DNA of 64,000 nt from Candidatus Nomurabacteria bacterium (lineage in GTDB: Bacteria > Patescibacteriota > Patescibacteriia > Magasanikbacterales > UBA922), in NCBI GenBank assembly GCA_020632445.1, contig JACKFN010000002.1, forward strand, positions 105,360 to 169,359, written 5' to 3'. The notes under the pieces were generated by a model. It ran no database searches, had not been told where the DNA came from, and saw only the letters and a program-made list of their open reading frames with translations. Of this stretch, positions 1,603-48,420 are shown one piece after another (position 1 is the first letter of the stretch; each line of letters begins with the position of its first letter). Position numbers and translations under genes: made by a program.

Positions 1603-4041
1603 TCACAAACTTGCATCCACCTCACCCGAATCCTCCTCCTCAGGCTCACTGCCAAGCTTTACTCCATCTACCACCAAAAGTATTTCTTTTCCGGTAATAG
1701 AATCTACCGCTCGAACATTTATCTTTGAAGTCAGGTTGGTCTGGGTTGGATTGTCGACGTTATTTTGGAAGGCAAATTGTAGTGCCAAGACATCGACCCC
1801 AAGCGGGAAAGTTTCCATATTCCACAAAACCTTTTGTGTTTCCGGGTCAAACTGAACTTCACCTGCTGGCACCGAAAGCTCATCGTCAAGCCATGTAATA
1901 TCACCATAGATATCCGCCTCCACCTGAACATTGCTCAGTTCATGAAAATGATTGGAAAGTACCCAACTCATGGTATGGACAAGCTGCTCTTCTTCAATTT
2001 CGTGCAGTACCTCAATACCCAAATCGGAGTTTACGGTCAGCATCAAAGGTTTTTGGGTAAGAATTTCTGTTTCACCATCAACCTCATACTGTACCTCCAG
2101 ATTTGCGATGATCTCATAGGTACTAAACTCGGAAAGCTCTATTTGATCAATATTGCGCACAGGAATACTAACGTCTAAAATCACTTCATCGCCTGGTTCG
2201 ATAGTCAAAAATTCTGGCACCGTTGACTTATCCCACTTCAAAATCGCCCTTCTGGTATTTTCATTTACCTGTTCACCAGAAATCTCTCCATCTCGATCAT
2301 CAATCAGATCTGCCCAACTGAGCATGGACTTTTCGTCAAACGATGGGGTATCAAAGCGAAGATATACTTCAACATTGTCTACCTGAGTTTTTCCTTCATT
2401 TTGTAAAAATATACTGCTTGCAAGCATTTCCCCTGGTTGCACATCAAGCTGTTTGGTAGCACCATTGATCACCAGTCGACTCACCATGTCGGTTTCAAGG
2501 ACAGTTATGGGAAGAATCTTGCTGGCATACACATACTCTCCATTATGCTCAGATTGCCCCGATGTTCCCAGCAGTTCAAATACTAATTCTGTCTCTCCAG
2601 ACTCCTCTGGATTTACAAATACACCCGATATTTTTGCCATTTTATCTTCTCCAAGAGATGAAAGCGAAAACTTTCCTTTGTTAAATGGAACTTCCTCAAG
2701 ATTGGCACTCTGCAACAAAAATGCATCATTTTGTACCACTCGCAAATACAGTTGCTCAAGCGAGACATTCTCTGGAAGATCAGAAAAGCTTACTTGCGCT
2801 TCTACGATATCACCGGCGACCACCTCTGTTGGCATAGCAACTTCCAAGTTATACTCTGGATTGGCAACCTCGATATTAAGGCTATCCACTTTTTGAAATT
2901 CAGAACTAAAATTAACAGGAATATAATTGATAAACGCTCGGATTGATTGACTCTTGCCTACATCACCGTACATTCTTCCAAAAATATCAATAAACCCACC
3001 TTCATATCCCTGCAAAAATCCAATATCAAACCGCTCATGATTTTCTGACTCCTGATGAACTGAAGCATCTCTATAGACAAAACCTTCTGGATACTTTACT
3101 TGTAACACAACATTATCAAGACCAACACTTGAGGTGTTACGATATCGTATGCGATATCGTACATCCCCACCAAAAGGTGCGATCTCACTTCCTTCAATTT
3201 CTAAAATAACGCTCTCTGGAGCAAAAGATGCATGGGGTGTAAGGTAAAACAAACCTGCATACACGACACCAGCGACAAAAATACCCGAAAATATAAGCGT
3301 AAAGAGTGCTCGGAAAAATCTTCCACCACGACGCTTTTTAAAATGCTTCATGTCTGGAATACTTCCGTCTTTATTCTTGTAAATTTTTGACAACTTCTCT
3401 TCTATCTTCTCGTGCTTGAGAGAAATAGATTCAACTTTTTCTTCTGATTTCTGTTTCATTTTGTGAGACTTCTTTATTTTCCTTTTTGTGGGCCTGTCTA
3501 CTTCTTTTTCTTTTTCATCACCAACCTCATGGACACTGTCAAAGCCATGTTCACCATCAGCTCTGTATGGTTCTGGCATGGCTTTATGATCTAGGCTACC
3601 CCCATCACTTTTTGCATCATACCAAAGTGCACGAACATCAGCACTCACCTCATCGTCTGGATCTACCGGCTGATGCTGAGCATTTTCTTTCTTTATTGCC
3701 TTGGCTTGTGTAGCGAGTTCCTTTGTGGATGCCTCATGTGACTGATGCATTTTTGCCACCAAATCTTCCAATTCGACTGATTCTCCAAGAGCATCTGAGA
3801 GTTCCTTCTTTTTATCTTTTAAAACCTTACTGGCTCCCGCAAGCTCAATGTCTTTTTTCAAAACCTCTATATCTTCATGTATCTTTTGTTCAAGCTGTTT
3901 TTTCTTATCCAAAGCCTGGTCCTTTTTCTTTGCTAAGGGCTTTGTTGAAGACTTTTTTGCTTTGGCTGACTTGGAAGCACTTGTCCTTTTCTTTGGAGCT
4001 GTTTTAGATGCTTTTGATGTGGAAGATTTTTTGACAGGCAT
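1603..4041 (-). CDS. Large type-II membrane protein: a lysine-rich, histone-like cytoplasmic N-terminal region (~230 aa), a single TM, and a ~570 aa extracytoplasmic domain (hypothetical surface protein)
   Basis: 812 aa. The N-terminus reads MPVKKSSTSKASKTAPKKRTSASKSAKAKKSS.... The TM is FRALFTLIFSGIFVAGVVYAGLFYL. It is the last gene of the glycosylation operon and is followed by the terminator at 1561-1588. Confidence 0.6.
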   Translation of the reverse strand: MPVKKSSTSKASKTAPKKRTSASKSAKAKKSSTKPLAKKKDQALDKKKQLEQKIHEDIEVLKKDIELAGASKVLKDKKKELSDALGESVELEDLVAKMHQSHEASTKELATQAKAIKKENAQHQPVDPDDEVSADVRALWYDAKSDGGSLDHKAMPEPYRADGEHGFDSVHEVGDEKEKEVDRPTKRKIKKSHKMKQKSEEKVESISLKHEKIEEKLSKIYKNKDGSIPDMKHFKKRRGGRFFRALFTLIFSGIFVAGVVYAGLFYLTPHASFAPESVILEIEGSEIAPFGGDVRYRIRYRNTSSVGLDNVVLQVKYPEGFVYRDASVHQESENHERFDIGFLQGYEGGFIDIFGRMYGDVGKSQSIRAFINYIPVNFSSEFQKVDSLNIEVANPEYNLEVAMPTEVVAGDIVEAQVSFSDLPENVSLEQLYLRVVQNDAFLLQSANLEEVPFNKGKFSLSSLGEDKMAKISGVFVNPEESGETELVFELLGTSGQSEHNGEYVYASKILPITVLETDMVSRLVINGATKQLDVQPGEMLASSIFLQNEGKTQVDNVEVYLRFDTPSFDEKSMLSWADLIDDRDGEISGEQVNENTRRAILKWDKSTVPEFLTIEPGDEVILDVSIPVRNIDQIELSEFSTYEIIANLEVQYEVDGETEILTQKPLMLTVNSDLGIEVLHEIEEEQLVHTMSWVLSNHFHELSNVQVEADIYGDITWLDDELSVPAGEVQFDPETQKVLWNMETFPLGVDVLALQFAFQNNVDNPTQTNLTSKINVRAVDSITGKEILLVVDGVKLGSEPEEEDSGEVDASL

Positions 4042-4052
4042 AGAGGTATCTT

Positions 4053-6791
4053 CTATTTATTTTTTTTTAGGACCACTCCGAGTAGGGTATCATACTGCAA
4101 CGGAGCTTGGTATGACACGACATCAAGACCGTCATGTAGCTGCTCACTACTAAGCCACTCAGGAGTAAAATTCTCTGGGTAGTGTATTTGTATGTCATAA
4201 TGAGCATTTGTACCGGACTGCTTTTGCACAAATAAGCTATATCGCATGGCCTGATCGGAAACTTTCCCAGTAAAATCATCTTTCCATTTTTCAAAGTTTG
4301 TTTTTGGTACAAAAGTTCGCTCAAGCGTGAACGGAAGCTCGTAGGTAAAGTATACCTCAGAAGCTTCTCCAACGCGAGTCACCATCCAGTTGGCAAATAC
4401 GGTCTTTCCAAATTGTTTGGTTACGCGTGTCCCAGATTCTATATGAACGTTTTCATCTTGCTCGATTGAAGTCAAAAATGGATCAGTATACGCCCCCTCC
4501 TGCGGAACTTGAAAATGCTCGTCAGCCGGAAATTCAAATCCTCCCGCATCAATAAGTTTAGAACCCTCAGGAACATAAACGCGAAGATAGTCGATATTGT
4601 CTTCGCCATAGAACATCTCACCAGGTTTTCCGTTATGGTCTTTTTTTATCCTGAGCGTCGTAAGAATCCGCCCATCTGGAAGGATATGCACATCTTGCAT
4701 TACTTGCTCATCCATTTTCGCGTCAGATTTTCCTCCTCCAATGTTACTATGAACAACCATAACATAGTCCTGTGTCTTTGGTGTTTTGGCTACACTTCCT
4801 GTCCAACCAAACTGCTCAAATGCTTGCTGCATTGTGTGGTCGTTGAATGCTACTTGAATTTCATTTTGTGATAATGCCTCATGAAGCTGTGTGAGCAAAC
4901 GGAGTCCTTGCGAGGCGCTCAAATGATTCATCTGATCAAGAAGACCCGTGAGCATACTTCCAATGGCTTCCTTTGGTCGATTTTCCGTCTTATCGTAGTC
5001 CATCTCAACTTCCTTTTGGAGAGCAAGAATAACATTCTCTTTATCAAGTGTACCAAGCTTCTCATCGGTATATGGTCCCATAACTCCAAGCAGCCTTTCA
5101 AGTACAGATGAATTGATAGCAATTACACCATCACTGCTGGCACCGCGAGTCTGCCTATAAAACCAATCAATTTTTTGTGCACTCGATGGAAAATCAGGAA
5201 ACCAATTGGAATCTTGGAATTCCCAGCGAGAATTCAAAAGTTGCAGTGGAAGGGGTGGTTCAATTACTTCATCAAGCTGTCCCTGCACATCATATGTTCC
5301 ACCTCCAGGAACGTCGATGTTCAAAATCTTTCCCTTTTGGACATCCACAACCGCAAAGCTTCCCATAAAACCACCGGTAGCACGGATTTCATCTTCATTT
5401 TGGAAAACGACAATATATCGTCTGAACTGTTCATGTCCAAATGCTGTCACCAAGGTGTCTGAAAGCTCAGCCAGATCAGTAAGGTCATCAACCAATGTTC
5501 CAAAAAGCAGCTTAAACTCATGATAGGTAGACTGATACTCAGCCGGAATCACACCGCTATCAACTGAATCAAGTTTTTCAAGCGCGGCCTGGTACTGAAT
5601 GATACTTGAGCGCAAACTCGAACGCACCATAACGAGTTTATCTGTAAGTGAAAATTCTTGAGCACCCTGTACATCGTCAATTGCCTCTACCAAAAACTTA
5701 TTTCCAAGCGCAACATGATGCCCTGCCTGCAATACGGCTTGTCTCCCTTCGATTTGTGGTCCAATAACCGGTAACATCCGTGAGACAAACAGTAGTGTTC
5801 CATGTTCTTTTTCGAGTACACTTTCCGCGCGAGAAAATGCATCAAGCGCCGACTGCAAATCGTGTTCAGCTTGACCGACATCGGCATTAAATGCCGCCAC
5901 CGTGGATGCCTGCAGTGATAAAAATGCATTTTTACTTTCTTCGATGACGGTCTGAGAATTTTCTTTCAGATCCTGCACATATCCCCACACTGGAAAGGGA
6001 AGTACCAAAAGCAGTAGCATGGCAAATGCCAGAGCCTTTTGCCTCGTCGCATGAGTAAATAGCTCAAGGACAGTGACTTTCTCTTGCGCATCAGGTGCAT
6101 CCTCTTGAGGTAACACAGCAGTTTGTCTCTGATCCATTGATGGCGGTGCAAACTGTGCAAGCGCACTAAAATCAATAGACGCCATTTCTTCAGGAGACGC
6201 CTGTGGCTTGTCGAGTTTTCTGTATTTTTCTAATACATCCACCTCTCCGGTGGCAAACAAATGATCAAGTGGTGGCTTTTGTGAAATCTTTTGTGTTGCA
6301 GGAACCTCTGTCTGAGAAACTGTTTGCTTAATTTTCTTTTGTGTCTGTGACTCTTTTTTGAGTTCCTGGACAAAAGCATGCAGGAAATCTGGTGCTTGAA
6401 TATGTGTTGGTTTTTTTTGTTCTTGCTTTTTTTCCCTATACTCCTTGATGTGCTTTCCAAAATCTACGGTAACGCGTTTTGGCGGAAGATAGCACTTTTC
6501 CTTGTAGACATGTACCTTTTGCCAGCTGCGAGGTTCGATATCTTTGAGACGAATGATGTGCTGGCTTGGGCTCTGAATGGAGTGCGTGTCCACGAAAATA
6601 TTTACACGACTTGAAGACTGCTGAATCTTATTTTTTGATGTGTCTTTTTTTTGTAAAGATGTAAAAATACTCTTCTTTGGCTTTTTGAGAGTTTCTGTTT
6701 CCACGACATTTTTTGTGCATGTACGTTTTGTATGACCCGAAAGTTTACACAAAGAACACAGACGCGTCACACGTTTACGCCTCTTGGACAT
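4053..6791 (-). CDS. Large type-II membrane protein with an N-terminal CxxC..H..C zinc knuckle, a K-rich linker, a single TM and a ~670 aa extracytoplasmic domain (hypothetical). Its architecture recalls the DUF4012-type proteins found in glycan loci, but this is unverified.
   Basis: 912 aa. The N-terminus reads MSKRRKRVTRLCSLCKLSGHTKRTC. The TM is FAMLLLLVLPFPVWGYV. It sits immediately downstream of a GT4 gene on the same strand. Confidence 0.55.
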   Translation of the reverse strand: MSKRRKRVTRLCSLCKLSGHTKRTCTKNVVETETLKKPKKSIFTSLQKKDTSKNKIQQSSSRVNIFVDTHSIQSPSQHIIRLKDIEPRSWQKVHVYKEKCYLPPKRVTVDFGKHIKEYREKKQEQKKPTHIQAPDFLHAFVQELKKESQTQKKIKQTVSQTEVPATQKISQKPPLDHLFATGEVDVLEKYRKLDKPQASPEEMASIDFSALAQFAPPSMDQRQTAVLPQEDAPDAQEKVTVLELFTHATRQKALAFAMLLLLVLPFPVWGYVQDLKENSQTVIEESKNAFLSLQASTVAAFNADVGQAEHDLQSALDAFSRAESVLEKEHGTLLFVSRMLPVIGPQIEGRQAVLQAGHHVALGNKFLVEAIDDVQGAQEFSLTDKLVMVRSSLRSSIIQYQAALEKLDSVDSGVIPAEYQSTYHEFKLLFGTLVDDLTDLAELSDTLVTAFGHEQFRRYIVVFQNEDEIRATGGFMGSFAVVDVQKGKILNIDVPGGGTYDVQGQLDEVIEPPLPLQLLNSRWEFQDSNWFPDFPSSAQKIDWFYRQTRGASSDGVIAINSSVLERLLGVMGPYTDEKLGTLDKENVILALQKEVEMDYDKTENRPKEAIGSMLTGLLDQMNHLSASQGLRLLTQLHEALSQNEIQVAFNDHTMQQAFEQFGWTGSVAKTPKTQDYVMVVHSNIGGGKSDAKMDEQVMQDVHILPDGRILTTLRIKKDHNGKPGEMFYGEDNIDYLRVYVPEGSKLIDAGGFEFPADEHFQVPQEGAYTDPFLTSIEQDENVHIESGTRVTKQFGKTVFANWMVTRVGEASEVYFTYELPFTLERTFVPKTNFEKWKDDFTGKVSDQAMRYSLFVQKQSGTNAHYDIQIHYPENFTPEWLSSEQLHDGLDVVSYQAPLQYDTLLGVVLKKNK

Positions 6792-6852
6792 TGGTAGGTG
6801 TTTGGCTGCACGAACAGCTGAATTCTGCTTTTATTATAGCACAAAAACAGAA

Positions 6853-7968
6853 TTATTGTGAAGAAATTTCTGTGTACATTTGATGCGTTTTCTTTGCAAG
6901 TGTATCCCAGCTATAAAGTTTGCATTGTTTTTGACCATTTTGCACTAATTCTAGACGAATATCCTCATCTTCTAAACCTTGCAGTATCATATGTGCCATA
7001 TGATCTACATTTTCCGGATCAAAGTAAAGTGCCGCATCTGCTAAAACCTCAGGCAAACAACTTGCCATGCTCGATACCACAGGTATCTTGTGCATCATCG
7101 CTTCAAGCGGCGGAAGGCCAAATCCCTCATAAAGACTCGGGAACACATAAAGCCTGGATTTTTGATATAGGTCACTGAGCTGATCGTCATCAAGGAAATC
7201 AGTATAGATGATAGAATTGCCAAATCGTTGAATTGCTACATTGTCAAACAATTTTTCATAAAAAGATGTTTTCTTCCCAACCAAAACAAGTTGATATGCG
7301 TCATCTGTTGCCTCGCGTACCTGCTCCCAAGCCTCGATGAGTCTATTCAAATTTTTATGAGGATACGCAGACCCGACATACATGGCAAAAGGCTTGGTAA
7401 TGCCAAATTTTTCTAGATCAATGGTCTTGTTTGACAAAACTAATTCAAAAGGAGCTTGATACGTTACGTACATTTTTTCCATCGGCGTTCCCAATGTTTT
7501 GTGAACATCTTGTTTGGTAAATTCACTCGTCACTATTACTTTTTTCGCTTTTTTTACAGCATTTTTTACGACTACACGATGCAGTTTGTCCTTAATAAAA
7601 TACCTAACCGGACCAAGTGTGGTGGCATCAGGTCGGGGATAATGGTACATAGTCAAATCATGAATCGTCACTACATAAGCCCCTGGATACAGCATCGGCA
7701 CATTCCAGTGCGGAAAGTGCATCACATTTACGTCTGCTTTTTTTATAATGCCTGGCATCTTCAATTGCTCTGCCACTGAGTACCAAGGAATATCACAAAG
7801 CACCTGCGAAAAATTTGATCCAAAATGCTCAGCTTGTAACTGTTCATTTACAAACAAAACATACTCATTGTCTGTATCCATTTTACCCAAAAATAAAACA
7901 AGCTGCTCGACATATCGAGCCAGCCCATAACCTTTTCCCATCATGCGCGCGTCAATTCCAATACGCAT
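6853..7968 (-). CDS. Glycosyltransferase family 4 (GT-B, group 1)
   Basis: 371 aa. It carries the C-terminal EX7E-type motif EGFGLPPLEAMMHKIPVVSS typical of GT4. The start lies 1 nt after the lexA stop (TAG 7970-7972, ATG 7966-7968), which implies co-transcription and translational coupling. Confidence 0.85.
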   Translation of the reverse strand: MRIGIDARMMGKGYGLARYVEQLVLFLGKMDTDNEYVLFVNEQLQAEHFGSNFSQVLCDIPWYSVAEQLKMPGIIKKADVNVMHFPHWNVPMLYPGAYVVTIHDLTMYHYPRPDATTLGPVRYFIKDKLHRVVVKNAVKKAKKVIVTSEFTKQDVHKTLGTPMEKMYVTYQAPFELVLSNKTIDLEKFGITKPFAMYVGSAYPHKNLNRLIEAWEQVREATDDAYQLVLVGKKTSFYEKLFDNVAIQRFGNSIIYTDFLDDDQLSDLYQKSRLYVFPSLYEGFGLPPLEAMMHKIPVVSSMASCLPEVLADAALYFDPENVDHMAHMILQGLEDEDIRLELVQNGQKQCKLYSWDTLAKKTHQMYTEISSQ

Positions 7969-7969
7969 A

Positions 7970-8605
7970 CTAAAACTTTGGTTGTTTTATCACTTGTAGC
8001 ACCACGCCGCTAACCTGATAGGCATCGACATCATCTCTGTGAATGTATATCGGCATGTACTGTGATGTTGATTCAGAAACGAGTGCGATTTGATTATTTT
8101 CTTTATCAAGAAAAAAGCGCTTGATATTGGCAAGTCCGTCAATAAGCGAAACAACATACTGTCCACTTTCTGGTGCATGATTTTCACTGTCTACGATTAC
8201 GTAATCTCCTTCTTCTATATTTTTACCGTCTATACTTGCCTTGTTCATAGAATTGCCAACGGCTTGGATGGCAAATACCCCATGAATTTTTTTGAGCACC
8301 TTTGGAGAAACCTGCAGATAACCCTCTACCATATCGTCGGCATAGACCGTCGCCGCACCACAGCTCGCACTTCCCAGTACTGGCACCGCTAGCAGTGACC
8401 CTGACTGCGCCTGACTCACCAACTGCAAAATACCTTTTTTACGGTCCATACGAATGAAGCCTTTCTTGGCGAGTTGATAAAGATGATGCTTGATCTTTTG
8501 TGGAGAATTTTCTACTCCGACAAGCTCACCGAGGCTACGAAGCGGAAGACCTGAAACGTCTTTTGAGCCAATAAGTTGAAGAAGTTTTTCTTGAATAGAA
8601 TGCAT
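7970..8605 (-). CDS. lexA: LexA repressor: a winged-HTH N-domain plus an S24 self-cleaving peptidase domain
   Basis: The wHTH reads IQEKLLQLIGSKDVSGLPLRSLGELVGVENSPQKIKHHLYQLAKKGFI. The cleavage region is VLGSASCGAATVYADD...EGYLQVSP (cf. VGRVAAGEP...EGHYQVDP). The Ser motif is AVGNSMN and the Lys motif is ANIKRFF. The start was chosen at MHSIQ (ATG 8603-8605) rather than the upstream ORF-track start. Confidence 0.8.
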   Translation of the reverse strand: MHSIQEKLLQLIGSKDVSGLPLRSLGELVGVENSPQKIKHHLYQLAKKGFIRMDRKKGILQLVSQAQSGSLLAVPVLGSASCGAATVYADDMVEGYLQVSPKVLKKIHGVFAIQAVGNSMNKASIDGKNIEEGDYVIVDSENHAPESGQYVVSLIDGLANIKRFFLDKENNQIALVSESTSQYMPIYIHRDDVDAYQVSGVVLQVIKQPKF

Positions 8606-8667
8606 AGGAGTGTAAATCCCATTATATCGCTTATTTACCTCAAAAGAAATCCCCACTTGTCAACAGT

Positions 8668-8687
8668 TTATTCACAGATGTGAATAA
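8668..8687. promoter_or_regulatory. Perfect palindrome TTATTCACA-ga-TGTGAATAA in the lexA 5' region. This is a candidate LexA operator (SOS box) of this lineage.
   Basis: A 9-2-9 perfect inverted repeat, 63 bp upstream of the lexA ATG. It lies between two TTGACA-containing promoter-like elements on the minus strand. LexA genes are typically autoregulated through a palindromic box. Confidence 0.45.
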
Positions 8688-8757
8688 CTTTTCAGTATTT
8701 ATACTTTTTACATTATTGACAAGCTTGACAACAGAACACTTTTTATCTAAAAATAAA

Positions 8758-8782
8758 CAAAAAATCTTGCTTATAGCAAGAT
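8758..8782 (-). terminator. Rho-independent terminator downstream of the 8813..9220 gene (minus strand)
   Basis: The stem-loop is AAAATCTTGC-ttata-GCAAGATTTT. On the minus strand it is followed by TTTTTTGTTTATTTTT. Confidence 0.5.
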
Positions 8783-8812
8783 TTTCACTCAATATTTTTT
8801 ATCCCCAATTCC

Positions 8813-9220
8813 CTATGACTTATTCACATATTTGCGTCTAAAGGCCTCTTTATCCCCAAATTCAGGGTAATCTTTATGATGCTCTGGCGGTTGAAAACCC
8901 TTTTTTTTCTCATGCTTGATACCACACCAATAGTGTTCAGTCATGGCAGCAACCATGCTGGCATAGTGAAAAAGACCATTAACGTAACCACAATACATGC
9001 AGTTAAGCTTTTCTACCGGATTGAGGTACTTGAGCCGGTGCCGATCAATTTTGATATAATCTCTGGTTTTCAGATACGGAATCCCATAGAGCGGAAAACA
9101 GACCGTATGATAGATTTCTAAAAAAATATGCAAAATGACTGATGGAACAATCATCATGTAGATAAAAGGGATTGAGACAATGTTGAGAGGAGTTCTCTCA
9201 GGATATTTTTTGTATTCCAT
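8813..9220 (-). CDS. Small hypothetical membrane protein within the glycosylation locus
   Basis: 135 aa. It has two hydrophobic helices (IVSIPFIYMMIVPSVILHIFLEIYHTVCFPLYGI) and a Cys/His-rich C-terminal part (CMYCGY...HYWCG). No family was recognised. Confidence 0.45.
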   Translation of the reverse strand: MEYKKYPERTPLNIVSIPFIYMMIVPSVILHIFLEIYHTVCFPLYGIPYLKTRDYIKIDRHRLKYLNPVEKLNCMYCGYVNGLFHYASMVAAMTEHYWCGIKHEKKKGFQPPEHHKDYPEFGDKEAFRRKYVNKS

Positions 9221-9232
9221 GTTATTTTATAG

Positions 9233-10366
9233 TCATGTGGTCGCCCTTGAGTCTAAAGAAAGAAGATGCAAAAATTCTTGAACAAATACACCCCAAGAAT
9301 ATTCAACCTTATTTTCTTCATTATACCTTTTTTGCTGGTCTATTTGAAATGCAATCGCCTTTTCTATTTCGGTTACACTATATGGATCGACGAGTGATGC
9401 AAATTCATCGGCCACTTCTACCAAAGAACTGTTACTGCTGGTTACTACTGAAGTTCCTACGGACTGCGCCTCAAGTACGGGAAAACCAAATCCCTCATAA
9501 AAACTCGGATACACGAAAATTTCTGCCATCTGGTAGAGTGCAGGTTTGTCGCACGCATCAACGTAGCCAATAGGCATCACGTTTTGGGTGCTTTTCATTT
9601 TTTTGACAACACTTTTGTATTTCCATCCAAGAGTCCCGGCAATTACCAAAGTGTACTTTTCTTTTTGTGTACGATTCCATCTTTCAAACCCGTCAATCAC
9701 ACCTTCTATATTTTTTCGTGGTTCGATAGTGCCCAGAAAAAGTAAATACTTTTCTGGCAAGCTGTATTTTTTTCTCACCTCAAAAAATTTTTCCTCAGAT
9801 AACCCCCGTTTATATTCCAAAAATTCTTTGCCTACTCCCGGACGCAATGTATGTACGCGATCCTTTTTTATACCATACTGGTGAGTAACATCGCGTGACG
9901 TATTATGAGATGGCGTAATAACAAATGTTGCCTTTTTGCAGGCACGTCTTGGATGAAGAATCCAATGCCAAATACGACGTTTAATATTGTACCAGCTCGG
10001 ACACAGCTCATAAGACATATCATGCACGACCTGAACCCGCTTGCATCTACTCGAAACAGAGCTAAATCCGATATTGAGGGAGACAAAGTAATCAAGCTCC
10101 TGCTCAAAAAATCTATCTAACTTTATAATTCCAAACAATGTCAAAAAATTTAAAACCTTGCTTGGTAGCCCTACATACCGATAGGTGACATTACGCTGTT
10201 TCCAGAGTTCTATCTTTGATCTATCAACTTTCCGCCTCCCATAAAACAAAAAATACTGATTTTTATGATCAGTATGCAAAATGGCATCAAGAAATTCATA
10301 GGTAAATTCACCCACTCCAGTCCGCGGGCTGTCCAGCAGTGGACGAATGTCAATGCCAATGTTCAT
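9233..10366 (-). CDS. Glycosyltransferase family 4
   Basis: 377 aa. Carries the motif EGFGFPVLEAQSVGTSVVTS. Has a GT-B fold pattern. Confidence 0.85.
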   Translation of the reverse strand: MNIGIDIRPLLDSPRTGVGEFTYEFLDAILHTDHKNQYFLFYGRRKVDRSKIELWKQRNVTYRYVGLPSKVLNFLTLFGIIKLDRFFEQELDYFVSLNIGFSSVSSRCKRVQVVHDMSYELCPSWYNIKRRIWHWILHPRRACKKATFVITPSHNTSRDVTHQYGIKKDRVHTLRPGVGKEFLEYKRGLSEEKFFEVRKKYSLPEKYLLFLGTIEPRKNIEGVIDGFERWNRTQKEKYTLVIAGTLGWKYKSVVKKMKSTQNVMPIGYVDACDKPALYQMAEIFVYPSFYEGFGFPVLEAQSVGTSVVTSSNSSLVEVADEFASLVDPYSVTEIEKAIAFQIDQQKRYNEENKVEYSWGVFVQEFLHLLSLDSRATT

Positions 10367-10375
10367 AATTTTTTC

Positions 10376-11479
10376 TTAACGCATTTTTGATGCCTCAAAC
10401 TTTCCCTGAATAAGTCCAAATACCTCCTTTTCAAACCGTCTGATATCAAACTGCTTGGCATGGTGCGCAATTTGGTGCCTATCAAAATCTTTGTGAGGAA
10501 AACGACGCAGGAGCAAATCAAAAAGCGTTTCCCATGTTTGTTCTTCAAACAAAAGTCCTGTTTGTCCATCAATAACCGTTTCTGTTGCACCACCCTTCCC
10601 ATACGCAATGACCGGGCAACCACTAGCCATAGCCTCTACAGGAGTGATTCCAAAATCCTCAAGCTGCGGGTGAATAAATGCCTTCGCCTTGGAAAGAAGT
10701 TCAATCTTTTCTTTTTCAGAAACCTTTCCCAAAAATTCTATATTACTCTTGGCGGACTTTTTGATATCATCCCACCAGCCAGGTCCAGTACCAAAAATTT
10801 TCAGCTTCCAACCAAGCCTATTAAATACCTGAATAACCAAATCAAATCGTTTGTATGCTGCGAGTCTTCCTCCGGTAATAAAGTAGTCCCCCACCTCATC
10901 GCTGACATAGTACTGACTCGTATCAACCGGCGGATAGACGACCAAAGCATCACGCTTGTAGTATTTTTGGATCCGATTTTTAACAGTATTGGAGTTAGCC
11001 AAAAAATGATCAACACGGTCTACGCTCATACGATCCCACATGCGTAGTTTATGGATGAGTCTTGGAAGGAGAATTTTTACCAAGGCATTATACTTGAGAT
11101 CACGAATATATTCGTGTGTATCGGTCCACAAAAAACGCGTCGGCGTATGGCAATAACAGATATGAATGGCTCCAGGATCTGTAAGCACACCTTTGGCAAA
11201 AGCGCTCGTAGAAGAAAGCACCACATCAAACCCACGCAAATCGTAGTGTTCTGTCGCCAGAGGCATCAGTGGCAAATACCACTGATAATGTGATCTTGAA
11301 AATGGAAAATTTTTGAGAAATGATTCACGAATTTGCGCATTTTGAAAACTTCCAATCTTATCTGGATCATGAAACAAAACATAGATTGGCGCGTTTGGCC
11401 AAATATTGTGAAACGCTTCTACCACTCTTTCTGCCCCACCATCTTGAGCGAGATAATCATGCACCAGTGCAATTTTCAT
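10376..11479 (-). CDS. Glycosyltransferase family 4 (group 1)
   Basis: 367 aa. The N-terminus is MKIALVHDYLAQDGGAERVV and the C-terminus reads EDFGITPVEAMASGCPVIA. Confidence 0.85.
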   Translation of the reverse strand: MKIALVHDYLAQDGGAERVVEAFHNIWPNAPIYVLFHDPDKIGSFQNAQIRESFLKNFPFSRSHYQWYLPLMPLATEHYDLRGFDVVLSSTSAFAKGVLTDPGAIHICYCHTPTRFLWTDTHEYIRDLKYNALVKILLPRLIHKLRMWDRMSVDRVDHFLANSNTVKNRIQKYYKRDALVVYPPVDTSQYYVSDEVGDYFITGGRLAAYKRFDLVIQVFNRLGWKLKIFGTGPGWWDDIKKSAKSNIEFLGKVSEKEKIELLSKAKAFIHPQLEDFGITPVEAMASGCPVIAYGKGGATETVIDGQTGLLFEEQTWETLFDLLLRRFPHKDFDRHQIAHHAKQFDIRRFEKEVFGLIQGKFEASKMR

Positions 11480-11485
11480 AGCCTA

Positions 11486-12904
11486 CTATTCTGCCTTTCT
11501 TTTCTTAAACAATATAAAGGGGGTTTTGATAAATACAATGGCATCAAGGGCCAAAGACCAATTCTCAATGTAAAAAATATCCAAATTTGCTTCTTCGTCA
11601 TATGACAAATCACTTCGACCAGAAATCTGTGCAAGCCCCGTAACCCCTGGTGGTATAGAAAGCACCTTCATATGACCAGTGGTATACCCCTTAACCTCTC
11701 GTGGTTGATGCGGACGTGGTCCGACCATACTCATATCACCGATAAACACATTGAGGAACTGTGGAAGCTCGTCGATACTCCACCTACGGATGAACCGACC
11801 AAATGGCGTAATGCGTGGATCATTTTCTACCTTATAAATAGGACCCTTTCTGCTACTTTGCTTCTTTATCAGCTCTGCTTCTTTCTCGAGCGCCTTTTTA
11901 CCTGACTCCCCATACTGCTCTCCAGTACAATCCTGCTGATACATAGAGCGAAATTTGTACAGATAAAACTTTCTTCCACTATGCCCTATACGCTCATTTT
12001 TGTAAATGATTGGTCCACCAGTCTCAAAAAAAATGATCAATGCGGTAAGAAGCATTATGGGACTCGTCACAACCATCAAAATAAGGCTTCCAATGAGATC
12101 AAAGATACGTTTGAGTACCATCCACCAACCTTCCAGACGAGTTTTTTTGATCTCTACAATAGGGACACCAGCAATTGGAGCCACAGCAATGTTGGTGGCA
12201 TAGGTAGAAAACAAATCAGCAAAATACTTAAAGGTTATTTGGTGTTGATTACAATAGTCGAGCAAACTCAATGTCTGTTTTTGCGATGCGTGTGGAGCTG
12301 AAAGGACGATTTCATCAATCAATTCTGTCTCGTATTTTTTCAAATCAGTAAGGCTAAATGACGGAAGTGTACCAATAACTTTATATCCAAGCTCGGGGCG
12401 CTTATCAAGTTCTTGTTTGAGTTGATGCGTAAGATCATTGTCCCCAATGATAAGCACATTGCGCAGTCCTATGCCCGCACGATATACCAGCGACTTAAGT
12501 CCACGAATAACAAGTCGTCCCAAGAAAACATACACTACCGCAAATACCCATGCAGCTGCGGCAATGAAACGAGAATCAAAAAGTTGTTGGGTAAACATCA
12601 AAAAAGTTGCTACGATGGCAAGACCCGCGAGGTTAGCAATAAAAATTCTAATCACATCTGAACCAAGCTTTCTGTTTGGATCAATGCTGTACAGTCCGGA
12701 AAGGATGAACACAAACATCCAAACAAAGATAATTGGTAAAATAATATCGAGGAATTGCCCAACGCTCATTTGGAACAAAACAGGTTTTAGCCCAATCGCC
12801 CAGTCAGAAAACCGAAGATAGTACGCACAAATCGCTGCCAGCAATAACATAAAGAAATCCAGTGGGAGCTGGACAACCATAAAAAACATCTGTGTTCTTT
12901 TCAT
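11486..12904 (-). CDS. Polyprenyl-phosphate sugar phosphotransferase (WbaP / bacterial sugar transferase family), the initiating enzyme of the glycan locus
   Basis: 472 aa. It has an N-terminal multi-TM region. The C-terminal catalytic domain reads KRIFDLIGSLILMVVTSPIMLL...GPRPHQPREV...PGVTGLAQISGRSDLSYDEEANLD. Confidence 0.9.
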   Translation of the reverse strand: MKRTQMFFMVVQLPLDFFMLLLAAICAYYLRFSDWAIGLKPVLFQMSVGQFLDIILPIIFVWMFVFILSGLYSIDPNRKLGSDVIRIFIANLAGLAIVATFLMFTQQLFDSRFIAAAAWVFAVVYVFLGRLVIRGLKSLVYRAGIGLRNVLIIGDNDLTHQLKQELDKRPELGYKVIGTLPSFSLTDLKKYETELIDEIVLSAPHASQKQTLSLLDYCNQHQITFKYFADLFSTYATNIAVAPIAGVPIVEIKKTRLEGWWMVLKRIFDLIGSLILMVVTSPIMLLTALIIFFETGGPIIYKNERIGHSGRKFYLYKFRSMYQQDCTGEQYGESGKKALEKEAELIKKQSSRKGPIYKVENDPRITPFGRFIRRWSIDELPQFLNVFIGDMSMVGPRPHQPREVKGYTTGHMKVLSIPPGVTGLAQISGRSDLSYDEEANLDIFYIENWSLALDAIVFIKTPFILFKKRKAE

Positions 12905-12995: not shown

Positions 12996-13425
12996 GTATC
13001 TATCAAGATGATCGCTTGCCGACTTGTCGGCAAGAGGAAAGTCCGAACTCTCGCTGATTTTTTCAGCAGCACAAGAGTGGGTAACGCCCACCCAGTCCGC
13101 CTCAGGTGTACTGAGGGAAAGTGCCACAGAGACAATACTATCCCGACATCGTCGGGAAAAAGGTGAAAAGTTTGAAGGTGTTTTGATACCAGTAGGATAT
13201 CCCTCGTATCAAAGCTACTTCATTCGCTGTATGGTGACATACATGCGTGGTAAACCCTCTTGGAGAGAAAGAGCAGAGCGTCTTTGGACGTAAAAAGTTA
13301 GCTCGTTAGAGACTGCTGGCAACAGCAGCCGTAGAGAAATGATCATCATCCTGACTTCATGTACAACCGACTTCGGTGGACACATGACATACGGAATACA
13401 AAATTCGGCTTATAAAATAGATACC
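12996..13425 (+). ncRNA. rnpB: RNase P RNA, bacterial type A
   Basis: Conserved blocks are present: GAGGAAAGTCCG (P4 5' strand), GGTAACGCC, GTGCCACAGAGACAA (cf. GUGCAACAGAGAGCAAA), GGTGAAA, GGTAAACCC, TAGAGAAATGA, and the 3' ACAAAATTCGGCTTATA (cf. ACAGAACCCGGCUUAU). The P1 pairing GTATCTAT/ATAGATAC defines the ends. Confidence 0.85.
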
Positions 13426-13452
13426 AAAAATCCGGCTTTAGCCGGATTTTTT
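13426..13452. terminator. Bidirectional rho-independent terminator shared by rnpB (+) and the convergent tRNA-Leu (-)
   Basis: AAAAATCCGGC-ttta-GCCGGATTTTTT, with A/T runs on both sides. Confidence 0.6.
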
Positions 13453-14984: not shown

Positions 14985-16718
14985 CTATTCTTTCGTATCA
15001 GATGATAACTCCTCCGGCCGATCACTATATTGATTTATAATATCTTGTCCAAACTTCGCCTGTTCATCTTTGAACTCTACGGTCTGTTCATCCGGACCTT
15101 CTAACGGCACCTCGAAACCAAACTCACTTCCTTTGCCGAGTCCAGGACTCTTTGCCCATACTTGCCCACCATGTGCTTCAATAAACTTACGACATACATA
15201 GATACCAAGTCCAGTCCCATTTACATTCGTACCCTCAACGTTCTTACCACGATAAAATTTTTGAAAAAAATTCCCTTTGTCTTCTTTGTTAAATCCAAAA
15301 CCTTCATCTTTGACGCGGACAACTACCTTTCCTGACTTTTTTTCAAGTATGATCTTGATGACCCCCTTATCACTATATTTGATAGCATTATCAATGAAGT
15401 TAAAAACCACATGTCGAATTTTTTCAGAATCCATCATAACCTTGACCGAAGCGGTCTTTGAGGGTTTCCAATCAATTTTGAGCCCCTTTTGACTAGCCCT
15501 GTCTATGAGTTCTTTGTAACAACTTGTAATAACCTCATTCATACTTCCTTTTGCAAACGAAAATTTTGTTCTTCCTTGCTCGATTCGAGTGATATCCAAA
15601 AATTCATCTACAAGTTTTACCAGACGTTCGTTACTCTCATCCATTTCGTCCAAAATTCCCTTGGTTTTTTTTGTGACTTTTCCAAAAGCCCCATCAGAAA
15701 TGAGTTCTATATATCCCTTGATGATCGAAAGCGGCGTTCGCAGCTGATGTGAGGCAATAGAAAGAAATTCAGTTTTGGTCCTATCAAGTTCTTGAAGCTT
15801 TTCATTTGCAACCTCTAACGATTTGGCCATGTGCTCAATTTGCTCCTTCTGATTTACTTCACGAACAACTGAGCGCACGATCACATACCCAAGTCCAGCA
15901 GCAAGAACAAATGCTGAACCTTTCAAAATGAGCTGTGTGAGTGTATCGACAAACAATACGTCAATCCCAAATAAGATAACCATTGCCACAACGGCAAGCT
16001 CAGTAAGTAAAGCCTTCATACTCATGAGCTGATACTTGGCAATTGAATACGAAACGGTTAATACCAAAATGAAGGTAAATACGGGACCAAGATGAATGAA
16101 GTGATAATTATGAAAGAAAGGGGATGGAAGAATGATGTTGAAATATCCACCGCATAAGACAATCCCAATCATGGTCGCAAAAATAATCTTTGCTTGTTTG
16201 CGAAGCACTTCGTTAGTGTCTTTGAGACTAAGTGCAAACAAAATTAACCCCCCCAAATAATACGCAGAGAAAAACGCAGTGAACAACCACCATCCAATAG
16301 GCTTAAGGTCAACTGAACGAGTACCATCAGGAAGAATAAATGCATCTCCCACTATAAAATCTGGGATAAAAAGCAGATAAGAAACAATGATAAAAAGGAC
16401 AAAACTTCCGATGTTGTAATTCAAAACGTTCGATCGTTTGTGTGGGAATACATGTACAAAGAACCACACATTCATGGCAATAAATAGCCCAGAAACATAT
16501 ATGGCTCGCATGTAGACGCTTGCCACCTCAAGTGGTGCATTTCTAAATGTAAGCAAAAGAAAAATCCATGCAGAAAGTGACAGGGCAAATGTGGTAAAAA
16601 CAATGTTGATTGAGTTTTTTGGGTCATTCGAGAGTATGAAAAACGCAAGCATGGCATTAAAGAATCCCAAAAAAATCAATAAGTAGTCGGGAAACGAAAG
16701 AAAAAATAACATAGACAT
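14985..16718 (-). CDS. Sensor histidine kinase with a multi-TM N-terminal sensor
   Basis: 577 aa, with about 8 N-terminal TM helices. The H-box is EFLSIASHQLRTPLS. The HATPase_c N/G boxes include GTGLGIYVCRKFIEAHGG. No response regulator is adjacent. Confidence 0.85.
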   Translation of the reverse strand: MSMLFFLSFPDYLLIFLGFFNAMLAFFILSNDPKNSINIVFTTFALSLSAWIFLLLTFRNAPLEVASVYMRAIYVSGLFIAMNVWFFVHVFPHKRSNVLNYNIGSFVLFIIVSYLLFIPDFIVGDAFILPDGTRSVDLKPIGWWLFTAFFSAYYLGGLILFALSLKDTNEVLRKQAKIIFATMIGIVLCGGYFNIILPSPFFHNYHFIHLGPVFTFILVLTVSYSIAKYQLMSMKALLTELAVVAMVILFGIDVLFVDTLTQLILKGSAFVLAAGLGYVIVRSVVREVNQKEQIEHMAKSLEVANEKLQELDRTKTEFLSIASHQLRTPLSIIKGYIELISDGAFGKVTKKTKGILDEMDESNERLVKLVDEFLDITRIEQGRTKFSFAKGSMNEVITSCYKELIDRASQKGLKIDWKPSKTASVKVMMDSEKIRHVVFNFIDNAIKYSDKGVIKIILEKKSGKVVVRVKDEGFGFNKEDKGNFFQKFYRGKNVEGTNVNGTGLGIYVCRKFIEAHGGQVWAKSPGLGKGSEFGFEVPLEGPDEQTVEFKDEQAKFGQDIINQYSDRPEELSSDTKE

Positions 16719-16857
16719 GCAATAAAAAAATCGGCTCGTACTCTACTACAAATATTTCTCATAGTATAGCACAAACCGACAAAAAGAGGGATGCACGGCC
16801 GCGTGTCAGTGGGAAAATTCACGCGGCATGCTATTGGGTGGGATATATTGTGTGAGA

Positions 16858-18177
16858 TCAAGCGTCGCGCGGAAGGTAGATCATACCGGAGTTGGCCAGC
16901 TGTGCGCCATATCCGGCGCCAATCACCAGCTGCCCGATCAGGTCACCAGGCTGGACAAGTCTCATCTCAATGGCACGACTGATCACGATGCCCGTTGACG
17001 GGCACACGGTGTTGCCGATGTCAGGCGTGCGAAGTGTACGATCGAGCATATCCAGCATATCGGCCAGCTCCCGCACCAACTTGAAGTTGGCCTGGTGAAT
17101 CGCGATCAGCATGAACTCCGTGATAGACTCCACACCCCACATCCGCGTGAGCATCTCGGCGTTGTCCATCATCGCACGGAAGAAGACCTCGGCCACGACG
17201 CCGGCGTTCATGGTGTACCGCGCATCCTGCCAGTTGCCGGCGTAGAGCGGGAAATCCGAACCACCTGCCATGAAGTCGACCAGCTCGATCGGCAGCGACG
17301 ACTCGCAGGACGTAAGACGCCCCTGACCACACCGCTCGAAGATAAGCGCCGAACCACCATCCGCGAAGAACCACGGCGTAGCCGCAGCCCACGGATGAGG
17401 ATGTTCGTTGGCCGTTCGCGTGATGTCGGGGTGCATGGCGGAGCCCGATGTGGAGTTGGTCCCCACGACGACACCCAGCTGAAGTCCTTCATGGGCCTTC
17501 ATGAACGTAGCCATCTCGTTAATGGCCGCACCCAATCCAGCACACCCGAAGTTCATGTGACGAACGATCCATCGACTCCGGCTGAGCCCGAGGATGTTCA
17601 TAGCCGCGCCGATGAGCCCACCGAGGTTGGTCCTCCCAGTGGTGCTCACGAAAACCATCACACCATTGCTCGTCCGCGCTTCATCGAGCGAGATGCCGGC
17701 CTGGTGAAAGGCACGAACCACGGCGAGCACAGCGTAGTGAAGGTCCGTCATGTGGTCCACGAGCGGCACGAGCGCCTGACGATGGGTCGGGAACGTCGCG
17801 CGCTCCCTCATGCCATGTCTGCGCTGGAGCTCCAGGATGCGGTCACGGAACTCCACGAGCTCGGGGTTCGGTTCGTCGGGATCACCCATGATCGGGAACC
17901 CCGTCACCAGACACCTCCCCTTCTCGTCGGTGTAGCCCGCCTCGTGGGAATCGAGAAACCGCACATGGCCCTGTCTGTCGATCTTGACCGCCGCGCTCGA
18001 ACCTTCGGCCTCGGTCATGCCGTAGAAGTCTTGGGCGGACATGAGGCCACCGCTGGGCTTGTTCCAAGGGAACCCACGAGCAATGTCCTCGTAGGTCACC
18101 TGCTGTCGACCGACATCAGAGGCGGCACGCAGCACCACCCCCATAACTTCCACTGCGTTGATGGTGTTGCTGGACAT
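16858..18177 (-). CDS. FabH-like (KAS III-type) thiolase-fold condensing enzyme with a ~150 aa N-terminal extension, encoded on a high-GC island
   Basis: The catalytic triad context is conserved: NFGCAGLGAAI (Cys; cf. AAACAGF), IAIHQANFKLV (His; cf. VPHQANLRI) and DIGNTVCPSTG (Asn; cf. HGNTSAAS). The C-terminus LVIGAGYG matches the FabH end. GC3 is strongly elevated relative to the rest of the window. The start was chosen at ATG 18175-18177, which is preceded by the RBS GGCGGAGGGT, rather than the TTG at 18207. Confidence 0.7.
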   Translation of the reverse strand: MSSNTINAVEVMGVVLRAASDVGRQQVTYEDIARGFPWNKPSGGLMSAQDFYGMTEAEGSSAAVKIDRQGHVRFLDSHEAGYTDEKGRCLVTGFPIMGDPDEPNPELVEFRDRILELQRRHGMRERATFPTHRQALVPLVDHMTDLHYAVLAVVRAFHQAGISLDEARTSNGVMVFVSTTGRTNLGGLIGAAMNILGLSRSRWIVRHMNFGCAGLGAAINEMATFMKAHEGLQLGVVVGTNSTSGSAMHPDITRTANEHPHPWAAATPWFFADGGSALIFERCGQGRLTSCESSLPIELVDFMAGGSDFPLYAGNWQDARYTMNAGVVAEVFFRAMMDNAEMLTRMWGVESITEFMLIAIHQANFKLVRELADMLDMLDRTLRTPDIGNTVCPSTGIVISRAIEMRLVQPGDLIGQLVIGAGYGAQLANSGMIYLPRDA

Positions 18178-18396: not shown

Positions 18397-18783
18397 CTAA
18401 TCCAAATCCATAATATTGTCCCGAAATCTCCCGCAGTTTATATCAAGAGCTCTGTAAATGTCAAATAAGCGTTCACTAGATAGTTCCCCCTTTTTAGCAA
18501 TGATTCCTCTTCTATCAAGAGTTTCTATCTTATACAGCTTACACAAAGCGTCAACGCCTAACCCATTTTCCGCGGCCACGAGAAGTACCTCGTTAGCAAA
18601 GACATGGTCACCTTTTTCACGCGGCTCAAGAATAGCGCATACAATAGTAGACAATCCTTCATTGAGGACATTATCCTGCAAAACCACCACAGCTTTTTCT
18701 CCCTTTTTTGACTCGTAGAGAAAAATATCACCACGCTCTATGACACCACAATACATGTTATCAATATCAAATGCTGCTTCCAT
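18397..18783 (-). CDS. MazF/PemK-family endoribonuclease toxin
   Basis: 128 aa. RGDIFLYE...KAVVVLQDN...LSTIVCAI...RRGIIAKKGELSSERLFDIYRALDI follows the PemK/MazF fold pattern (GDIWLV...RPVLIVS...VVVPxT...). It overlaps the upstream RHH gene. Confidence 0.65.
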   Translation of the reverse strand: MEAAFDIDNMYCGVIERGDIFLYESKKGEKAVVVLQDNVLNEGLSTIVCAILEPREKGDHVFANEVLLVAAENGLGVDALCKLYKIETLDRRGIIAKKGELSSERLFDIYRALDINCGRFRDNIMDLD

Positions 18784-18983: not shown

Positions 18984-19068
18984 ACTTCTTTCAGTATACA
19001 GAAAAAAAACAAAATCCAAACTTCTTTCTGTGGATAAGTTGCACTCTACAATACACCTTTTATTTGCG

Positions 19069-39460: not shown

Positions 39461-39548
39461 AGAGGAGGGCAGAAGTGCAAATTTTGCCTAAATCTGTTGA
39501 TTTTTGTGAATTTATGCTATAATCTCTCTAAAATTATCCTTGCCGACT

Positions 39549-48347: not shown

Positions 48348-48420
48348 TGCGCCTGGGTGGGTTTGAACCACCGACCCCAACGTTATAAGCGTTGTGCTCT
48401 AACCCCTGAGCTACAGGCAC
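48348..48420 (-). tRNA. tRNA with predicted anticodon UAU (tRNA-Ile, AUA-decoding)
   Basis: Manual cloverleaf gives acceptor GTGCCTG/CAGGCGC (T2-G71 wobble), D-arm GCTC-AGGGGTTA-GAGC, anticodon stem CAACG/CGTTG with loop CTTATAA (U33, anticodon TAT, A37), variable loop GGGTC, T-arm GGTGG-TTCAAAC-CCACC, and discriminator A. A terminator hairpin lies at 48315-48338. Confidence 0.8.

Follow-up and report, generated by a model that had tools for sequence, protein, structure and literature searches.

A palindrome upstream of a patescibacterial lexA operon is probably an inverted pair of DnaA boxes beside a candidate direct-repeat LexA operator

In Escherichia coli, lexA shares its operon with a passenger gene, dinF. 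An operon of similar build lies in the stretch of DNA analysed here, a window of 64,000 nucleotides from a Candidatus Nomurabacteria bacterium (contig JACKFN010000002.1 of assembly GCA_020632445.1, positions 105,360 to 169,359 of the forward strand), in which a lexA gene (7970..8605, minus strand) carries in its leader a perfect 20-bp palindrome (8668..8687) that a preliminary description of this DNA had proposed as the LexA operator, or SOS box, of the lineage. As in lexA-dinF, the gene directly downstream of lexA is, very probably, under the lexA promoter; unlike in lexA-dinF, the passenger encodes a GT4 glycosyltransferase (6853..7968, minus strand), and in other Patescibacteria the passengers are DNA methyltransferases, MazF toxins or MscL. 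Three further groups of described systems bear on this leader. DnaA, apart from its role at origins, is a transcription factor that acts in Bacillus subtilis on sda, ywlC and the trmE-noc operon (PMC4447404). The DnaA-reactivating sequences DARS1 and DARS2 of E. coli have a core of three DnaA boxes in which box I is oriented opposite to boxes II and III (PMC5742627). Finally, lexA operators built as direct repeats occur elsewhere, with GTTC-N7-GTTC in Alphaproteobacteria, TTACACATATTTTWTACATA in Balneolaeota and, according to Sanchez-Osuna et al. (2017; cited in PMC7739468 and PMC8565304), a repeat in Patescibacteria; PMC7739468 counts this patescibacterial SOS study among its examples of a LexA that came to recognize a direct repeat and not a palindrome.

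Set against these systems, the palindrome is best read as an inverted pair of high-affinity DnaA boxes (TTATNCACA, a 2-bp spacer, and TGTGNATAA) like those at patescibacterial origins, and the lexA-GT4 operon would then carry a direct-repeat LexA operator together with DnaA boxes. We consider this reading probable because the arms match the DnaA consensus, the element is associated with dnaA, boxes of this type are enriched in intergenic DNA, and the leader holds a cluster of them. The palindrome reads TTATTCACA, spacer ga, TGTGAATAA (as a whole, TTATTCACAGATGTGAATAA) and lies 63 bp upstream of the lexA ATG; the perfect 9-2-9 symmetry reported in the preliminary description is exact at 8668-8687, and this is the sole copy in the window, where 0.02 would be expected. 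Both arms agree at 9/9 positions with the DnaA-box consensus, which is given as TTATNCACA (PMC4447404) and as TTWTNCACA (PMC5835720). The locus thus shares with DnaA-regulated promoters both the consensus and the placement of boxes just upstream of or inside the promoter; it differs from known DnaA-controlled promoters in that the promoter is that of lexA, a gene that is not mentioned in the text of the DnaA papers PMC4447404 and PMC5835720. In close relatives the element reads TTATTCACA-cc-TGTGAATAA (L004; related loci and contigs are cited by such numbers throughout), TTATTCACA-tc-TGTGTATAA (L087) and TTATCCACA-gc-TGTGTACAA (L001), so that both arms stay box-like and vary mainly at the N of the consensus, with the right arm of L001 (TGTGTACAA) also departing at W.

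The palindrome does not stand alone. A third, weaker box-like 9-mer (TGTTGACAA, two mismatches; 8657..8665, minus strand), invariant in the close relatives, begins 2 bp past it and contains TTGACA (8663-8658), the inverted copy of the TGTCAA unit discussed below. Further box-like 9-mers occupy 8799..8858, namely TTATCCCCA at 8799, TTATTCACA at 8820 and TTATCCCCA at 8850, the last two falling in the 3' end of the upstream open reading frame (ORF); altogether six box-like 9-mers are found within 190 bp (8668-8858; P about 4e-4). The core promoter is marked by a TATAAT -10 hexamer (8621..8626, minus strand), which is invariant in the close relatives and lies 15 nt upstream of the lexA ATG, and no good match to a -35 hexamer is present at 17 nt from it. 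The TTGACA at 8663-8658 was considered as its -35 and set aside, because the spacer would be 31 nt.

A scan of public metagenomes for the exact 20-mer returned at least 120 contigs, which span 23-60% GC. Among the 120 matches listed, dnaA adjoins the 20-mer in 34 contigs, and dnaN does so too in 24 of those; dnaB and ruvC are among the other neighbors, and none of the matches encodes a LexA of the type found in the window, which means that the palindrome is not confined to genomes with a cognate LexA. A dnaA start could be assigned in about half of the 34 contigs, and there the usual place of the palindrome is no more than about 150 bp upstream of that start; in other contigs among these matches it is found in the dnaA-dnaN spacer or further off, and often there are more boxes at a distance of 2 bp. 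The association extends to Patescibacteria. Contig L172 encodes a DnaA that is 75-77% identical to the DnaA of named Patescibacteria and carries the palindrome directly after the dnaA stop codon, and in three more patescibacterial dnaA loci (L209, L210, and L211) boxes stand in tandem upstream of dnaA, while the dnaA-dnaN spacer of these loci opens with inverted pairs whose arms are 2 bp apart. The lexA leader of the window shares an identical inverted pair with the dnaA promoters of many bacteria and with patescibacterial dnaA-dnaN spacers. No origin is placed in the window itself, since its cumulative GC skew falls almost monotonically, with a single small rise at 40-42 kb where the genes switch to the plus strand.

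Two side observations concern these dnaA loci. The patescibacterial dnaA promoters contain TGTG(A/G)A(T/A)AA-N3-TGTGTATAA (L209:2916-2936, L210:2915-2935, L211:2928-2948, and L172:290-310), a pair that nearly equals boxes II and III of DARS1, TGTGGATAAccaTGTGTATTA (L212:1122-1142, E. coli), including the 3-bp spacer. In addition, the DNA immediately upstream of dnaA holds genes for type IV secretion (TraC-like; VirB4/TraG-like ATPase) in three patescibacterial genomes (L209:1-2874, L210:1-2776, and L211:1-2898).

For comparison, 80 lexA loci from named patescibacterial genomes were examined; the analysis covered 81 lexA upstream regions and 1.27 Mb of related DNA. These promoters have a common layout, tTGTCAAgttTGTCAAgttTTAat..c TGTGGA(T/A)AA CTTtTTGAca .. 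TATAAT .. ATG, in which the right arm of the palindrome has its counterpart in the common box TGTGGAWAA; on the present reading, the palindrome is a local doubling of the one box that patescibacterial lexA promoters have just upstream of the -35. Of the 81 upstream regions, 61 contain a DnaA-type box, where about 5 would be expected by chance, and in 49 of the 81 it has one orientation and a fixed place directly upstream of the -35. Across those 49 boxes, position 5 varies (G in 42, T in 4, A in 2, and C in 1) as does position 7 (T in 27, A in 18, and C in 4), all other positions being fixed; the variation falls at the N and W of the DnaA consensus, its degenerate positions. Inverted pairs, with a preference for the 2-bp spacer, were found in only 8 of the 81 regions; in most lineages the left arm is absent, and in some the single box is flipped. 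Outside lexA promoters, TTWTCCACA is five-fold enriched in the intergenic DNA of the lexA loci (18 vs. 3.6 +/- 2.4), and coding DNA shows no enrichment. What may be new is that lexA promoters throughout the superphylum have a consensus DnaA box in a constant position and that the passenger gene behind lexA varies.

Several side observations concern such boxes and repeats. In L063 (5660-5700), a tandem 18-bp repeat (GTTTTCCACAATTGACAA, two copies) joins a DnaA-type box to TTGACAA; it lies among several tandem repeats, upstream of a gene for a 421-aa membrane or secreted protein without a Pfam match. TTCTAG repeats flank the box in one lineage. In the lineage comprising L042, L043, L045, L048, L052, L066, L073, and L074, TTTTCTAG stands in place of the second TGTCAA unit, and TTTCTAG(A/T) occurs a second time, between the -35 and the -10 (lexA upstream region, about -100 to -30), which suggests a further or altered operator. 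In the window, a perfect DnaA box (TTATCCACA, 19029-19037) is also present in the intergenic DNA upstream of a MazF/PemK toxin gene (18397-18783, minus strand).

The best candidate for the LexA operator is a direct repeat with a 9-bp period (TGTCAAgctTGTCAAtaaTGTAAA; 8707..8730, minus strand), a lexA-specific motif whose core, TGTCAA-N3-TGTCAA, occupies 8716-8730 and whose third, degenerate unit reaches 8707. A search of the 1.27 Mb with TGTCAANNNTGTCAA at no more than one mismatch gave 72 matches, about 64 of them upstream of lexA or its operon, some of these preceding a small gene that heads the operon. The remainder comprised a few matches inside other ORFs and matches within the recA coding sequence (6 loci), the latter dismissed as a coding coincidence (DKLDK). 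At the same threshold the repeat is present in 51 of the 81 lexA upstream regions, including those of lineages without the DnaA box; the Falkowbacteria loci and several more keep the repeat although they have no box. Many lexA promoters also contain an inverted TTGACA within the spacer, 7 nt upstream of the -10, a position that one would expect a repressor to occupy. Most likely, judging from this conservation, LexA would bind the TGTCAA direct repeat and the inverted TTGACA. The likeness to published work (PMC7739468) is one of architecture, a direct repeat; a literature text search for TGTCAA together with LexA returned primer noise only. In common with the direct-repeat systems introduced above, the repeat is conserved upstream of lexA, specific to it, and associated with a LexA family whose recognition helix is nearly invariant; it differs from them in its 9-bp period, in the additional inverted TTGACA in or near the core promoter, and in that the DNA examined yielded no other members of a regulon.

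A patescibacterial-type LexA was also encountered in six contigs labeled as Chitinophaga, Chitinophagaceae, Bacteroidota or Bifidobacteriaceae (L058, L059, L072, L075, L078, and L083). In five of them lexA is divergent from recA (e.g., L059:9771-10000), and in L075 another gene precedes lexA; their promoters are of the Bacteroidetes style (TAnnTTTG) and keep TGTCAAgttTGTCAATAA, with a TTATTCACA or TTATGCACA box nearer recA. These contigs may be mis-binned, or they may hold a real canonical-type LexA in a phylum for which the absence of such a LexA has been reported (PMC8565304).

Observed directly are the sequence identities and how well they are conserved, the palindrome's association with dnaA, and the anatomy of the operon; the assignment of proteins to elements, and of any direction to an effect of DnaA, is inferred. 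LexA would give de-repression of lexA-GT4 upon DNA damage through RecA-stimulated cleavage at Cys82-Gly83, and DnaA bound beside the promoter would supply an input from the status of replication initiation; recA is present in related genomes. Since one operon would combine both kinds of site, expression of lexA-GT4 would answer to LexA and DnaA alike. This clade has its DnaA pair centered about 56 bp upstream of the -10, whereas in most other lineages the box adjoins the -35. Here the box would have been doubled into an oriC-type inverted pair, and replication status and DNA damage would converge on a small operon. A wider proposal, that DnaA, through a consensus box fixed beside the -35, directly controls lexA and the passenger gene behind it across the Patescibacteria, or else that the cluster is a DnaA modulator of the DARS or datA kind, is offered tentatively, and we place its probability somewhat below even.

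A number of observations count against combining a direct-repeat LexA operator with DnaA boxes in this way. When the 1.27 Mb were searched with a position matrix for the direct repeat, nothing convincing turned up beyond the lexA operons, and the region upstream of recA in L070 has no such motif; because no second target was found, the repeat cannot be tied to a regulon. Within the window the repeat is not above chance (2 found, 1.0 expected), so that its weight comes only from conservation across genomes. In this clade it lies about 90 bp upstream of TATAAT, and all candidate sites are upstream of the core promoter, which is unusual for simple repression. As to the boxes, their preferred orientation (57 plus vs. 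16 minus), their conserved flanks (C at -1 and CTT after) and their fixed position relative to the -35 could be exploited by another factor or by LexA, and a dimeric repressor would likewise be suited by a dyad whose arms are held 2 bp apart. Finally, dnaA is absent from the window. No dnaA or ribonucleotide reductase genes were found in the patescibacterial lexA loci.

Of the alternatives, the one that survives best, though we regard it as unlikely, is that the cluster is no transcriptional operator but, in the manner of DARS or datA, handles DnaA, either titrating it or reactivating ADP-DnaA, and lies in the lexA leader by happenstance. E. coli DARS1 reads TTATCCACt-N5-TGTGGATAA-N3-TGTGTATTA, and the window, with TTATTCACA, TGTGAATAA and TGTTGACAA in succession, presents the same three-box order with box I opposite to II and III, in addition to the six box-like 9-mers already described; moreover, an SOS gene, uvrB, has DARS1 in its promoter region (PMC5835720), and the promoter region that holds the window cluster is likewise that of an SOS-related gene. 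However, the spacers in the window measure 2 and 2 bp and those of DARS1 5 and 3 bp, there are two mismatches in the third box, and most lineages have one box only, whose distance from the -35 is fixed. Because of the different spacing the cluster is not filed as a DARS, and the constant distance of the single box from the -35 speaks for control of the promoter and against a free-standing DnaA-handling site.

We give a lower probability still to the proposal of the preliminary description that the palindrome is the LexA operator of the lineage, with a dimer on the two arms repressing lexA-GT4 until DNA is damaged. The palindrome does lie in the lexA leader, its perfect dyad is the usual form of a LexA site, and it is conserved in the clade; one arm is kept in most patescibacterial lexA promoters, beside a LexA whose recognition helix is nearly invariant, and the inverted pairs in lexA promoters favor a 2-bp spacer. 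On the other hand, its arms are DnaA boxes, the 20-mer stands beside dnaA in 34 diverse contigs without this LexA among the 120 matches listed, and the same element is found in patescibacterial dnaA-dnaN spacers. Usually a single arm is conserved, the left one being missing in most lineages and the single box sometimes flipped, whereas lineages with the same recognition helix but no box retain the TGTCAA repeat, and patescibacterial LexA is classed with the direct-repeat binders in PMC7739468. Nor does the palindrome recur upstream of repair or SOS genes in the window or the 1.27 Mb of related loci. The preliminary description had proposed a search for similar sites near such genes: a relaxed search of the window found no copy near a repair gene, and none was found near repair genes in the 1.27 Mb, the box-bearing intergenic sites preceding unrelated genes and the genes beside non-lexA intergenic boxes showing no enrichment for repair functions. 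A TGTGAAT half-site had further been pointed out in the promoter of the uvrA operon; it actually lies at 39505-39511 and is attributable to chance, TGTGAAT being present 12 times in the window against an expectation of 17. The UvrA gene was confirmed (41870-44704). Setting aside the palindrome as a new SOS box avoids a wrong regulon prediction built on DnaA boxes.

Equally improbable is that some other factor, or none, is at work, the box belonging to an extended promoter or an UP-like element, or else serving a regulator of another kind, and its match to the DnaA consensus being coincidental: the fixed place upstream of the -35, the orientation preference, the conserved flanks and further repeats such as TTCTAG around the box in one lineage are in keeping with it, but a chance 9/9 match in both arms is improbable, the coincidence would also have to share the pattern of variation, the 2-bp spacing and the occurrence at dnaA, and DnaA would bind a perfect consensus box anyway. 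The palindrome was also considered as a CRP-like site and rejected, its half-sites having the order TCACA..TGTGA and those of CRP the order TGTGA..TCACA.

Whichever protein occupies the palindrome, the downstream gene appears, from its sequence, to encode a genuine LexA-family repressor of a type that is widespread in Patescibacteria and that looks cleavable. The 211-aa protein begins MHSIQEKLL, carries at its N-terminus a winged helix-turn-helix (wHTH) with the recognition helix SPQKIKHHL, and contains a Peptidase_S24 domain (E=5.6e-17). Its N-terminus scores 21.5 bits against LexA_DNA_bind (PF01726), narrowly below the Pfam cut-off of 23.7; many orthologues have a PF01726 match, which together with the profile alignment places the wHTH in the LexA family. 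Against the NCBI LexA equivalog TIGR00498 it scores 78.7 bits, below the cut-off of 110.95, and the protein is a divergent lineage of the family. It is 100% identical to the hypothetical protein H6758_01630 of Candidatus Nomurabacteria bacterium; an exact-sequence look-up found no record. Homologues number in the hundreds, at about 50% identity, across the Patescibacteria. In an alignment of 32 of them, Ser119 (GNSM) and Lys162 (NIKR), the Ser/Lys dyad of S24 peptidases, are invariant, the helix PQKIKHHL is nearly invariant, and so is Cys82-Gly83, at the position of the LexA Ala-Gly bond. A family profile made from this alignment has as its best matches solved LexA structures, over both domains and the full length, and aligns with residues 28-198 of E. 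coli LexA, including the helix-turn-helix and the catalytic region. The invariant residues and the profile matches to LexA structures indicate a genuine, if divergent, LexA, and the bona fide status assigned to it in the preliminary description is borne out; the Ala/Gly-type cleavage region also described there is not, because the aligned site is Cys82-Gly83. Cys-Gly is the cleavage site of UmuD, and self-cleavage of the UmuD type at Cys82-Gly83, rather than at Ala-Gly, is plausible from the alignment.

All genes concerned lie on the minus strand. The lexA stop codon (7972-7970) and the GT4 start codon (7968-7966) are separated by 1 nt (junction TAG-T-ATG), as had been reported, and a 1-nt gap or a 4-nt overlap is kept at this junction in four lineages; in one lineage a PP2C-like gene is inserted there, again with 1-nt gaps. 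Relatives with 72-83% LexA identity show the same order of WbaP, GT4, GT4, (small ORF), lexA, GT4, DUF4012 and a large protein. Neither a conserved terminator nor a conserved promoter was found between lexA and GT4 in the window and its relatives; the only hairpin nearby, at 7920-7905 inside GT4, was discarded as a terminator because it coincides with a coding motif that GT4 conserves, whereas its stem varies. With the shared strand, the minute gap, the uninterrupted junction and the conserved adjacency, lexA and GT4 are, as had been proposed, very probably co-transcribed and translationally coupled.

Upstream, the picture is different. The upstream unit (8813..12904, minus strand) consists of a WbaP-type sugar transferase (11486-12904), two GT4 genes (10376-11479 and 9233-10366) and a 135-aa ORF (8813-9220), all on the minus strand, and is ended by an intrinsic terminator with a 12-bp stem and a T run (8760..8786, minus strand); a hairpin is conserved at this position in the relatives, with different stem sequences. 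Because this terminator (8786-8760) closes the WbaP-GT4-GT4 unit, lexA opens a new transcription unit and does not lie inside one. Of the claim that lexA is embedded in a glycosylation operon, the setting holds, since WbaP, GT4 and GT4 flank it on one side and GT4 and DUF4012 on the other, whereas a single continuous operon is precluded. Downstream of GT4 are the genes for a 912-aa DUF4012 protein (4053..6791, minus strand) and an 812-aa protein without a Pfam match (1603..4041, minus strand), followed by an intrinsic terminator at 1586-1561. The DUF4012 gene has a promoter of its own (TTCACA-18-TGcTATAAT; 6833..6862, minus strand), whose extended -10 (TGcTATAAT) is invariant in all relatives, and the two large proteins do not, for this reason, depend on the lexA promoter, although read-through into them is not excluded. 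The predicted co-induction by DNA damage is accordingly weakened for the surface proteins.

With regard to what follows lexA elsewhere, the downstream gene varies by patescibacterial lineage and usually lies 5-35 bp away or overlaps. The passengers include a C5 DNA methyltransferase, an N6/N4 methyltransferase, an Eco57I/TaqI-type methylase, a MazF/PemK toxin and MscL (L012:10660-11805, L027:4398-5453, L020:10658-11485, L026:10655-12229, L082:10078-11898, L084:2107-3987, L025:1745-2104, L040:10648-11043, and L017:9532-9834), and an HNH endonuclease or a phosphoketolase is often encoded divergently upstream of lexA. It looks as though variable genes, some of them related to defence, are slotted in behind lexA. 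In a superphylum without genetics, lexA promoters share a fixed layout of a LexA-type direct repeat and a consensus DnaA box. Should DnaA act there, replication control and the damage response would be wired together in these reduced genomes, and the position behind lexA would be a general place for surface-modifying or defence genes under joint control.

Several minor observations were made in passing. The N-terminus of the DUF4012 protein (6700-6791, minus strand) reads MSKRRKRVTRLCSLCKLSGHTKRTC, a basic, Cys/His-rich, zinc-knuckle-like segment that is kept in L004 and is odd for a presumed surface protein. An RNase P RNA (class A, 174 bits; 12996-13428, plus strand) lies directly upstream of the WbaP gene and is divergent from it, and one tRNA gene is present in the window (48348-48420, minus strand). 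The GC content rises to 0.52 at 16001-18000 as against about 0.42 elsewhere; a 439-aa ORF (16858-18177, minus strand) has only a weak match to a KAS-III C-terminal domain and overlaps a 397-aa antisense ORF. Lastly, in L018 (at 748, 1567, and 2551) three terminator-like hairpins of the form AAAACAG(A/G)AACGTGTGGAAAAC(G/A)TGTTTCTGTTTT, with the loop TGTGGAAAA, lie between successive genes.

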